Assembly (NCBI RefSeq): GCF_055900595.2
Contig: NZ_CM148325.1
Reading direction: 5' to 3' (one strand)
DNA length: 64,000 nt
Shown here: positions 2,343-6,645 of the stretch, one piece after another
How the letters are laid out: each line of letters begins with the position of its first letter
Numbering within the stretch: the first letter of the stretch is position 1
Notes under the pieces: model-generated
What the model saw: only the letters and a program-made list of their open reading frames with translations
What the model was told of the DNA's origin: nothing
Database searches by the model: none
Position numbers and translations under genes: made by a program

Positions 2343-3592
<1,250 letters not shown>

Positions 3593-3769
3593 TAGAGTAA
3601 GTAACTGGTTAATTTACATTCTGGTCGCGTGCGCAAATACGCTTTTCCTCACACAGTTGTCAAGTGTTACGTTTAGATAATTGCTATCCGGAAAAGCTTC
3701 TGCTATTTATAGCGGCCTCATTTTTCCCCCGAACATGGGGATCGATAGTGCGTGTTAAGGAGAAGCAAC

Positions 3770-4225
3770 ATGCAAGAAGGGCAAAACCGTAAAACATCGT
3801 CCCTGAGTATTCTCGCCATCGCTGGGGTGGAGCCATATCAGGAGAAGCCGGGCGAAGAGTATATGAACGAAGCCCAGCTGGCGCACTTCCGTCGTATTCT
3901 GGAAGCATGGCGTAATCAACTCAGGGATGAAGTCGATCGCACCGTTACACATATGCAGGATGAAGCAGCCAACTTCCCGGACCCGGTAGACCGTGCAGCC
4001 CAGGAAGAAGAGTTCAGCCTCGAACTGCGTAACCGCGATCGCGAGCGTAAGCTGATCAAAAAGATCGAGAAAACGCTGAAAAAAGTGGAAGACGAAGATT
4101 TCGGCTACTGCGAATCTTGCGGTGTTGAAATTGGTATTCGTCGTCTGGAAGCGCGCCCGACAGCCGATCTGTGCATCGACTGCAAAACGCTGGCTGAAAT
4201 TCGCGAAAAACAGATGGCTGGCTAA
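3770..4225 (+). CDS. dksA: RNA polymerase-binding transcription factor DksA
   Basis: ATG at 3770 preceded by AGGAG (3758-3762); 151 aa. C4 zinc finger CESCG...CIDC and an acidic coiled-coil region. The track ORF begins 6 codons upstream at a GTG. Confidence 0.95.
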
Positions 4226-4253
4226 TTACAGCCGTTCCATCACGTTTACCACA

Positions 4254-4281
4254 GGCGGGAAATGCTCCCGCCTTATTTTTT
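4254..4281 (+). terminator. Intrinsic terminator hairpin downstream of dksA (GGCGGGAAATGCTCCCGCC followed by a T-run)
   Basis: Perfect 7-bp GC-rich stem with a 5-nt loop, followed by TTATTTTTT, lying 29 nt after the dksA stop. Confidence 0.6.
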
Positions 4282-4291
4282 GTTCAACGAG

Positions 4292-5188
4292 ATGACAGAC
4301 ACACACTATATTGGTCGCTTCGCCCCCTCTCCTTCTGGCGAGCTTCATTTTGGCTCTCTGATTGCCGCGCTTGGAAGCTTTCTACAGGCTCGCGCCCGGC
4401 AAGGTCGCTGGCTTGTTCGCATTGAAGATATCGATCCGCCTCGTGAAGTTCCCGGTGCCGCAGAGACCATCCTGCGCCAGCTGGAACATTACGGTCTACA
4501 CTGGGACGGCGATGTTCTCTGGCAATCGCAACGTCACGACGCCTATCGCGAAGCACTCGCATGGTTACATGAGCAAGGGTTAAGTTATTACTGCACCTGC
4601 ACGCGCGCACGTATTCAAAGCATTGGCGGTATTTACGACGGTCATTGCCGGGAGTTGCATCATGGGCCAGAAAACGCTGCTGTACGTATTCGCCAGCAGC
4701 ATCCGGTCACCCAGTTTACTGACCAGCTGCGCGGCATTATTCATGCCGACCAAAAACTGGCGCGGGAAGATTTTATTATTCATCGTCGTGATGGTTTATT
4801 TGCCTATAACCTGGCGGTGGTGGTGGATGATCACTTCCAGGGCGTGAGCGAAATTGTCCGCGGGGCAGATTTGATCGAACCGACAGTGCGGCAAATCTCG
4901 CTGTACCAGCTTTTTGGCTGGCAGGTGCCAGATTACATTCATTTGCCACTGGCACTTAATCCACAAGGCGCTAAACTTTCCAAGCAGAATCATGCGCCTG
5001 CGTTGCCAAAAGGCGATCCTCGGCCGGTGTTAATCGCGGCACTTCAATTTCTGGGCCAGCAGGCAGAAACACACTGGCAGGATTTCAGCGTTGAGCAAAT
5101 TCTCCAGTCAGCCGTCACAAACTGGACGCTGACTACCATTCCTGAGTCGGCAATTGTAAATTCAACATTCTCAAATGCGTCATGCTGA
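4292..5188 (+). CDS. gluQ: Glutamyl-Q tRNA(Asp) synthetase (GluRS paralogue YadB)
   Basis: Translation [23 protein letters not shown]... with class I aaRS HxGS motif. ATG at 4292 is chosen over the track ORF start at 4262, which lies inside the dksA terminator hairpin. Confidence 0.85.
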
Positions 5189-5247
5189 GCTATGATTAGC
5201 CGCTATTTTTTTGTCCTGAATGATGTTTGACACTACCGAGGTGTACT

Positions 5248-6645
5248 ATTTTTACCCGAGTCGCTAATTTTTGCCGCAAGGTGCTAAGCCGCGAGGAAAG
5301 CGAGGCTGAACAGGCAGTCGCCCGTCCACAGGTGACGGTGATCCCGCGTGAGCAGCATGCTATTTCCCGCAAAGATATCAGTGAAAATGCCCTGAAGGTA
5401 ATGTACAGGCTCAATAAAGCGGGATACGAAGCCTGGTTGGTTGGCGGCGGCGTGCGCGACCTGTTACTTGGCAAAAAGCCGAAAGATTTTGACGTAACCA
5501 CTAACGCCACGCCTGAGCAGGTGCGCAAACTGTTCCGTAACTGCCGCCTGGTGGGTCGCCGTTTCCGTCTGGCTCATGTGATGTTTGGCCCGGAGATTAT
5601 CGAAGTTGCGACCTTCCGGGGACATCACGAAGGTAACGTCAGCGACCGCACGACCTCCCAACGCGGGCAAAACGGCATGTTGCTGCGCGACAACATTTTC
5701 GGTTCCATCGAAGAAGACGCCCAGCGCCGCGATTTCACCATCAATAGCCTGTATTACAGCGTGGCGGATTTTACGGTCCGCGATTACGTTGGTGGCATGA
5801 AGGATCTGAAAGACGGCGTTATCCGTCTGATTGGTAACCCGGAAACGCGCTACCGTGAAGATCCGGTACGTATGCTGCGCGCGGTTCGTTTTGCCGCCAA
5901 ATTGGGCATGCGCATCAGCCCGGAAACCGCAGAACCGATCCCACGCCTGGCAACCCTGCTAAACGATATTCCTCCGGCACGCCTGTTTGAAGAATCGCTT
6001 AAACTGCTACAAGCGGGCTACGGTTACGAAACCTATAAACTGTTGTGTGAATACCATCTGTTCCAGCCGCTGTTCCCGACCATTACCCGCTACTTTACGG
6101 AAAATGGTGACAGTCCAATGGAGCGGATCATTGAGCAGGTGCTGAAGAATACTGACACGCGTATTCATAACGATATGCGCGTCAACCCGGCGTTCCTGTT
6201 TGCCGCCATGTTCTGGTATCCCCTGCTGGAAACAGCACAGAAAATCGCGCAAGAGAGCGGCCTGACTTATCACGACGCTTTCGCGCTGGCAATGAACGAT
6301 GTGTTAGACGAAGCCTGCCGTTCACTGGCGATCCCGAAACGGCTAACCACTTTAACGCGTGATATCTGGCAGTTACAGTTGCGCATGTCCCGCCGTCAGG
6401 GTAAACGCGCATGGAAATTACTCGAACATCCGAAGTTCCGTGCCGCTTATGACCTGCTGGCACTGCGTGCTGAAGTAGAACGCAACGCCGAGCTACAACG
6501 TCTGGCGAAATGGTGGGGTGAGTTCCAGGTTTCCGCGCCGCCGGACCAAAAAGGGATGCTTAACGAACTGGATGAAGAACCGTCACCGCGTCGTCGTACT
6601 CGTCGCCCGCGCAGACGTGCGCCGCGCCGTGAGGGCACCGCATGA
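5248..6645 (+). CDS. pcnB: Poly(A) polymerase I
   Basis: Track ORF 5227..6645 recognised as PcnB (nucleotidyltransferase motif [17 protein letters not shown]; Arg-rich C-terminus). Annotated from the ATT codon at 5248 (IFTRVANF...), following the known non-AUG initiation of pcnB. Exact start is uncertain from sequence alone. Confidence 0.85.

Follow-up and report, generated by a model that had tools for sequence, protein, structure and literature searches.

The hairpin found between the dksA and gluQ genes is the Rho-independent (intrinsic) terminator of dksA. It very probably acts as a partial internal terminator of the operon, with the gluQ message originating mainly or only from transcripts that read through it. 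The hairpin is located at positions 4253-4273 (plus strand) of the analyzed window, a stretch of 64,000 nucleotides from contig NZ_CM148325.1 of the RefSeq assembly GCF_055900595.2. Its structure, its conservation, and the absence of a Shine-Dalgarno (SD) sequence before gluQ are established in this study. Co-transcription of the two genes, the lack of a detected separate promoter, the function of the terminator, and the start codon of gluQ are established by published experiments on the same sequence.

Genomic Context of the dksA-gluQ Intergenic Region

The window belongs to Escherichia coli. Its bases 3600-5300 match those of E. coli strain Z0117EC0005 with 100% identity and have 94-96% identity to most other complete genomes of this species. 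The local gene order on the plus strand is thpR, sfsA, dksA, gluQ (gluQRS), pcnB, and folK. The dksA gene (3770-4225, plus strand) encodes a protein of 151 amino acids and was identified by the NCBIfam model NF008045 (E = 1.7e-104) and by the PGAP annotation of the identical strain. It is preceded by a strong SD sequence, AAGGAG, with an anti-SD duplex energy of -9.2 kcal/mol, and it ends with a TAA codon at 4223-4225. The gluQ gene, also known as gluQRS or yadB (4292-5188, plus strand), encodes a protein of 298 amino acids, in agreement with the NCBIfam model NF004312 (E = 1.4e-185) and with the PGAP coordinates of the coding sequence.

Of 5426 E. coli genomes, 5423 contain exactly one copy of the terminator locus (at least 95% identity over 91 nt). 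A repeat or REP-like element was rejected on the basis of this single locus per genome in the 5423 genomes.

Further observations concern the neighboring sequences. Translation of E. coli pcnB is known to begin at a non-canonical AUU, and the PGAP start of this gene is an ATT (AUU) codon at 5248-5250 (plus strand); in the mechanical list of open reading frames, pcnB begins further upstream, with TTG at 5227. An RNase III site has been reported inside K-12 gluQ at position 159578. This site was considered as the hairpin site and rejected, as it converts to approximately position 4796 of the window, inside gluQ. Another terminator-like hairpin with a T-run is located inside the gluQ coding sequence at 4886-4906 (plus strand), apart from the RNase III site, and probably occurs there by chance.

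Structure of the Terminator Hairpin

The terminator hairpin is supported by folding, a terminator scan, conservation, and published mutagenesis of the 5' arm. Its stem, AGGCGGGA / UCCCGCCU, contains eight pairs, from A4253-U4273 to A4260-U4266, six of which are G-C, and it closes a loop of five nucleotides, AAUGC (4261-4265). The stem is separated by 27 nt from the dksA stop codon and by 18 nt from the gluQ ATG at 4292. On the plus strand it is followed by UAUUUUUUG, with seven U in nine nucleotides. The U-tract itself, UUAUUUUUU (4273-4281, plus strand), also accounts for the greater part of the gluQ leader, which is A/U-rich and SD-less.

The isolated hairpin has a folding energy of -15.1 kcal/mol (z = -3.76) that was matched by none of 200 dinucleotide-shuffled sequences; in its 85-nt context, the folding z-score is -2.95. 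The first-pass annotation had placed a GC-rich hairpin with a T-run after dksA, at about 4254-4281, and these coordinates agree with both the folding and a simple terminator scan, which detects the site. Its two further statements on the geometry are also borne out: the T-run ends at 4281, 10 nt before the ATG at 4292, and an earlier ATG (4262-4264), in frame with the latter and 30 nt from it, lies within the hairpin, namely in its loop.

On the minus strand, GUGGU follows the hairpin and a U-run is missing, so the terminator works in one direction only. A bidirectional terminator was therefore rejected; moreover, all the neighboring genes are on the plus strand. Thus, the hairpin combines the properties of an intrinsic terminator: a GC-rich stem with a short loop, a U-tract on one strand, a suitable distance from the stop codon, and evolutionary maintenance.

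Conservation of the Terminator in Enterobacteriaceae

The gluQ locus was compared in 80 species of Enterobacteriaceae, with upstream DNA available for 79 of them. In all 79 of these species, dksA is located directly upstream of gluQ. The intergenic regions vary from 51 to 172 nt and are mostly unalignable between genera. Nevertheless, a GGCGGG...CCCGCC core was found between the two genes in 76 of 82 sequences, representing 73 of the 79 other species. The six core pairs are invariant in 61 distinct sequences; the loop and the flanks diverge. The pair above the core displays a compensatory change from A-U to G-C with both sides altered, A-U, C-G, and U-A pairs are all represented at the stem base, and in five flanking pairs both partners have changed. 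Standard pairs occupy 86.9% of the stem cells, versus 49-58% after the partner column has been shifted by 1-3 positions. The terminator hairpin is also the only consensus structure predicted by RNAalifold over the 61 intergenic regions. The hairpin thus exceeds the chance expectation.

Between the dksA stop codon and the core there are at least 16 nt, with a median of 27 nt (75 sequences). RNA located 16 nt or more from a stop codon lies beyond the footprint of the terminating ribosome, so this ribosome should not block folding of the hairpin. At the other end, CCCGCC terminates 12-28 nt before the gluQ AUG across species, a spacing too short to accommodate a promoter.

The quality of the U-tract varies by genus, from three to eight U in nine nucleotides, with seven in Escherichia. 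In the Enterobacter group, the start codon is located 14 nt from the core and the U-tract is poor (four or five U of nine), which makes the efficiency of termination in this group uncertain. Read-through is probably tuned differently between the lineages.

Some species have enlarged intergenic regions (125-172 nt) with extra strong hairpins. These are L018, L079, and the members of the Phytobacter/Kosakonia group (L023, L026, L029, and L055). In the Phytobacter group, a different hairpin, CGGGGAAAAUUUCCCG, with a poor U-tract, was found in place of the usual GGCGGG hairpin.

Probable Dependence of gluQ Expression on Read-Through

The dksA-gluQ-rs intergenic region was previously analyzed in Shigella flexneri 2457T (Caballero et al., 2012, BMC Microbiol 12:226; PMC3542578). 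In that study, RT-PCR demonstrated co-transcription of dksA and gluQ-rs. A lacZ fusion without the dksA promoters had baseline β-galactosidase activity; a promoter specific to gluQ-rs was not detected. When the fusion stopped short of the hairpin, its activity was 10-fold that of the fusion including it, and replacement of the 5' arm of the stem increased reporter activity more than 2-fold (PMC3542578). Mapping of the published primers to the window located the mutated stem bases at 4253-4261 and the end of the hairpin-less construct at 4243. As mutation of the stem had an approximately 2-fold effect versus the 10-fold effect of removing the whole region, something besides the stem contributes to the difference, such as the U-tract, the leader, or translation of the reporter.

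In E. coli K-12, the ligT-sfsA-dksA-yadB-pcnB-folK operon was described by RNA-seq (Conway et al., 2014, mBio 5:e01442-14; PMC4161252). An internal promoter and an internal terminator give rise to a dksA-specific transcription unit within the longer operon transcript (PMC4161252). The S. flexneri experiments and this internal terminator of K-12 support the proposal of the first-pass annotation that gluQ expression depends on read-through from dksA.

The following scheme would agree with these data. Most transcripts starting at the dksA promoters would end in the U-tract, with the 3' end probably at about 4279-4282, yielding a monocistronic dksA mRNA with a hairpin at its 3' end; this hairpin may also protect or stabilize the message. 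A minority of the polymerases would read through and produce a dksA-gluQ(-pcnB-folK) RNA, the main or only presumable source of gluQ message. The published 10-fold difference between the reporters suggests that the read-through fraction is roughly a tenth. From this RNA, gluQ would be translated inefficiently, starting at the AUG at 4292 and with a leader that lacks an SD, is rich in A/U, and consists largely of the terminator tail; initiation is expected to be SD-independent and possibly assisted by S1. Together, the terminator and the SD-less start would hold GluQ-RS far below DksA, with its transcription tied to the dksA promoters.

For Pseudomonas aeruginosa, a figure legend reports a major peak of dksA 3' ends in the dksA 3' UTR; in a literature search, no E. 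coli Term-seq data naming dksA or gluQ were found.

Possible Regulation of Read-Through

Instead of a constitutive leak, the hairpin might be a regulated attenuator, with read-through switched by growth phase or stress, although this is rather unlikely. Such a switch might operate through a factor recognizing the invariant stem, through an effect of DksA/ppGpp on the polymerase, or, with translation of the final dksA codons as the signal, through a second stem-loop, which was predicted over the dksA stop codon (4213-4241, plus strand). This stem-loop bears on the question of regulated read-through. It consists of an outer helix, 4213-4217/4237-4241 (GAUGG/CCAUC), and an inner one, 4219-4223/4230-4234 (UGGCU/AGCCG). 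The inner helix is closed by U4223, the first base of the stop codon, whose other two bases, A4224-A4225, are located in the loop. Its energy is -12.5 kcal/mol, with z = -2.36 when the non-coding arm is shuffled. The CCAUC at 4237-4241 is also complementary to GAUGA at the gluQ start (4291-4295). This stem-loop is not mentioned in the 2012 Shigella paper (PMC3542578).

A comparable helix at the stop codon was predicted in 57 of 70 distinct Enterobacteriaceae sequences, with 34% of them at p ≤ 0.05, where 5% are expected. This enrichment across species speaks for regulation, as does the invariance of the 6-bp core across genera, which extends to its sequence and goes beyond pairing alone. The published RT-PCR points in the same direction: in S. 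flexneri, the product spanning the intergenic region increased 20-fold in stationary phase, versus 1.3-fold for the dksA and gluQ-rs amplicons, and a riboswitch-like or protein-binding circuit was left open by the authors (PMC3542578). Other points speak against it. End-point RT-PCR is only semi-quantitative, and an invariant GC stem can be explained by the cost of double mutations. The register of the stop-codon stem-loop differs between genera, RNAalifold does not call it, and the segment separating the stop codon and the hairpin lacks sequence conservation across genera.

A riboswitch would have a conserved antiterminator or aptamer upstream of the terminator; RNAalifold found no such conserved alternative pairing and no second consensus helix. 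The intergenic region has no Rfam match at E ≤ 1, and the riboswitch search of Caballero et al. was negative as well (PMC3542578). Membership in a known RNA family was thus rejected, since an Rfam scan of 3400-5400 gave only a chance snoRNA match inside dksA.

The terminator could also be imagined as a controlled valve, in which the invariant GGCGGG(A/G) stem and the stem-loop at 4213-4241 let growth phase, dksA translation, or DksA/ppGpp set the read-through into gluQ. We consider this quite unlikely. If true, such a valve would link the glutamyl-queuosine modification of tRNA-Asp to the stringent response through a feedback that has yet to be described. Regulation of the read-through is a modest question, and a partial terminator that leaks into gluQ is the preferred explanation.

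Search for a Separate gluQ Promoter

As a further alternative, gluQ might have its own promoter inside dksA and be expressed independently of the dksA promoters. According to Caballero et al. (2012), RegulonDB contains a sigma-24 recognition site for gluQ-rs, experimentally untested; the gluQ-rs mutant is osmosensitive, and the published reporters were not run under envelope or osmotic stress (PMC3542578). Such a promoter is nevertheless very unlikely, because the construct lacking the dksA promoters remained at baseline β-galactosidase activity (PMC3542578), and any transcript starting inside dksA must still pass the terminator. The latter point also limits the reporter result, as the published promoterless construct retained the terminator and a weak promoter inside dksA would therefore be attenuated. 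No usable sigma-70-like or sigma-E-like motif was found between the dksA start at 3770 and the gluQ AUG at 4292 by crude and relaxed scans, which are insensitive and also missed the known dksA promoters. The only candidate for an independent promoter, a weak sigma-70-like match at 4283-4312, was rejected, as it would start transcription inside gluQ.

A sigma-70-like promoter, TTCTCA-17-TATGAT, was found by the promoter scan at 5168-5196 (plus strand), overlapping the gluQ stop codon. The K-12 pcnB-folK promoter S-159171 (PMC4161252) converts to approximately position 5203 of the window, 7 nt downstream of this motif, which is thus likely the pcnB-folK promoter.

Start Codon of gluQ and Absence of a Shine-Dalgarno Sequence

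Two start codons have been annotated for gluQ. In the K-12 reference NC_000913.3 (L002), the gene starts with the loop ATG and has 927 nt, encoding 308 amino acids; in the PGAP annotation of the strain identical to the window, it has 897 nt and encodes 298 amino acids. Edman sequencing of S. flexneri GluQ-RS gave TDTQYIGRFAP, and no obvious SD was noted (PMC3542578). The start is therefore the second methionine, corresponding to 4292 in the window, with a product of 298 residues. Of the 79 other species, 76 have an ATG aligned to that at 4292. The loop ATG (4262-4264, plus strand), which starts the 308-residue K-12 form, is confined to Escherichia; ATA takes its place in Escherichia whittamii, and in Escherichia sp. 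MOD1-EC7003, whose intergenic region is shorter by one base, it is not in frame with gluQ. Judging by annotation, the published N-terminus, and conservation, it is probably not used. Thus, N-terminal sequencing and conservation favor annotation of gluQ from the ATG at 4292, as the first-pass annotation had it and PGAP agrees, and the 308-residue gluQ of the K-12 reference record is probably too long.

Translation signals of gluQ and dksA were compared by the energy of the anti-SD duplex at positions -20 to -4 in 79 sequences (the window, the E. coli entries, and the 76 other species with the ATG). For gluQ, the threshold of -4.4 kcal/mol is reached in none of the 79 sequences; the median is +1.5 kcal/mol, and the window, where gluQ likewise lacks an SD, has the same value. 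For dksA, the threshold is passed in all 79, each at -9.2 kcal/mol. Thus, gluQ has no SD in any of the species compared.

Local structure over the start codon is variable. The segment 4270-4300 has no significant structure (z = 0.01). In the minimum-energy fold of this strain, the AUG at 4292 is paired with 4238-4246 (unpaired probability 0.08); in the predicted fold of K-12, its partner is the U-tract instead. Across the 79 sequences, the median unpaired probability of the gluQ AUG is 0.45, with 33 sequences below 0.3 and seven above 0.7. A conserved helix masking the start was rejected, since RNAalifold leaves only the terminator in the 61 intergenic regions. The first-pass annotation had further suggested that the ribosome-binding site of gluQ may be structurally masked by the hairpin. 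This part found no support, given the 18 nt between the stem and the AUG, the lack of an SD in all 79 sequences, the z-score of the start segment, and the lack of a conserved helix covering it. Neither an SD nor the used start is located inside the stem, and the only AUG in the hairpin is the probably unused one at 4262.

It is accordingly most improbable that the hairpin is mainly translational, masking the gluQ ribosome-binding site or controlling a 308-residue isoform from the AUG at 4262: the location of this AUG in the loop, the SD-like AGGCGGG in the 5' arm, the 308-residue K-12 annotation, and the pairing of the AUG at 4292 in this strain are outweighed by N-terminal sequencing that gave the 298-residue form only, by the absence or frame shift of the loop ATG described above, by the SD-less start 18 nt beyond the stem, and by the lack of a conserved helix over the start codon, whose unpaired probability has a median of 0.45 across species.

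Comparison with Known Systems

The leaky dksA terminator before gluQ has already been published for Shigella and E. coli K-12 and is ordinary, so the phenomenon itself contains nothing new. As the present comparison shows, the arrangement published for Shigella, in which the terminator precedes an SD-less start codon, is family-wide in Enterobacteriaceae; it would keep the tRNA-modifying enzyme low relative to DksA throughout the family. The practical consequences are minor.

By its sequence, the hairpin of the window is the same element as the terminator of S. flexneri 2457T. The flanks, the 3' arm, and the U-tract are identical, an AUG is located in the loop with a second AUG 27 nt further on, and the published mfold energy (-14.7 kcal/mol) is about that calculated for the window. 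The differences are small: just before the AUG, position 4288 is occupied by C in the window and by A in S. flexneri (AACGAG versus AAAGAG), and the N-termini of the proteins are the same except for residue 5, which is H and Q, respectively. The internal terminator of K-12 is found at the same locus, and its hairpin and U-tract are identical to those of the window; in that study, the transcription units were derived from RNA-seq and the hairpin was not dissected, and K-12 gluQ is annotated with 308 amino acids. More distant parallels, cited by Caballero et al. (2012), are the partial terminators before dnaG in the rpsU-dnaG-rpoD operon and before recX (recA-recX). The genes of these systems are unrelated to dksA-gluQ, as presumably are the sequences, and the likeness is in logic only.
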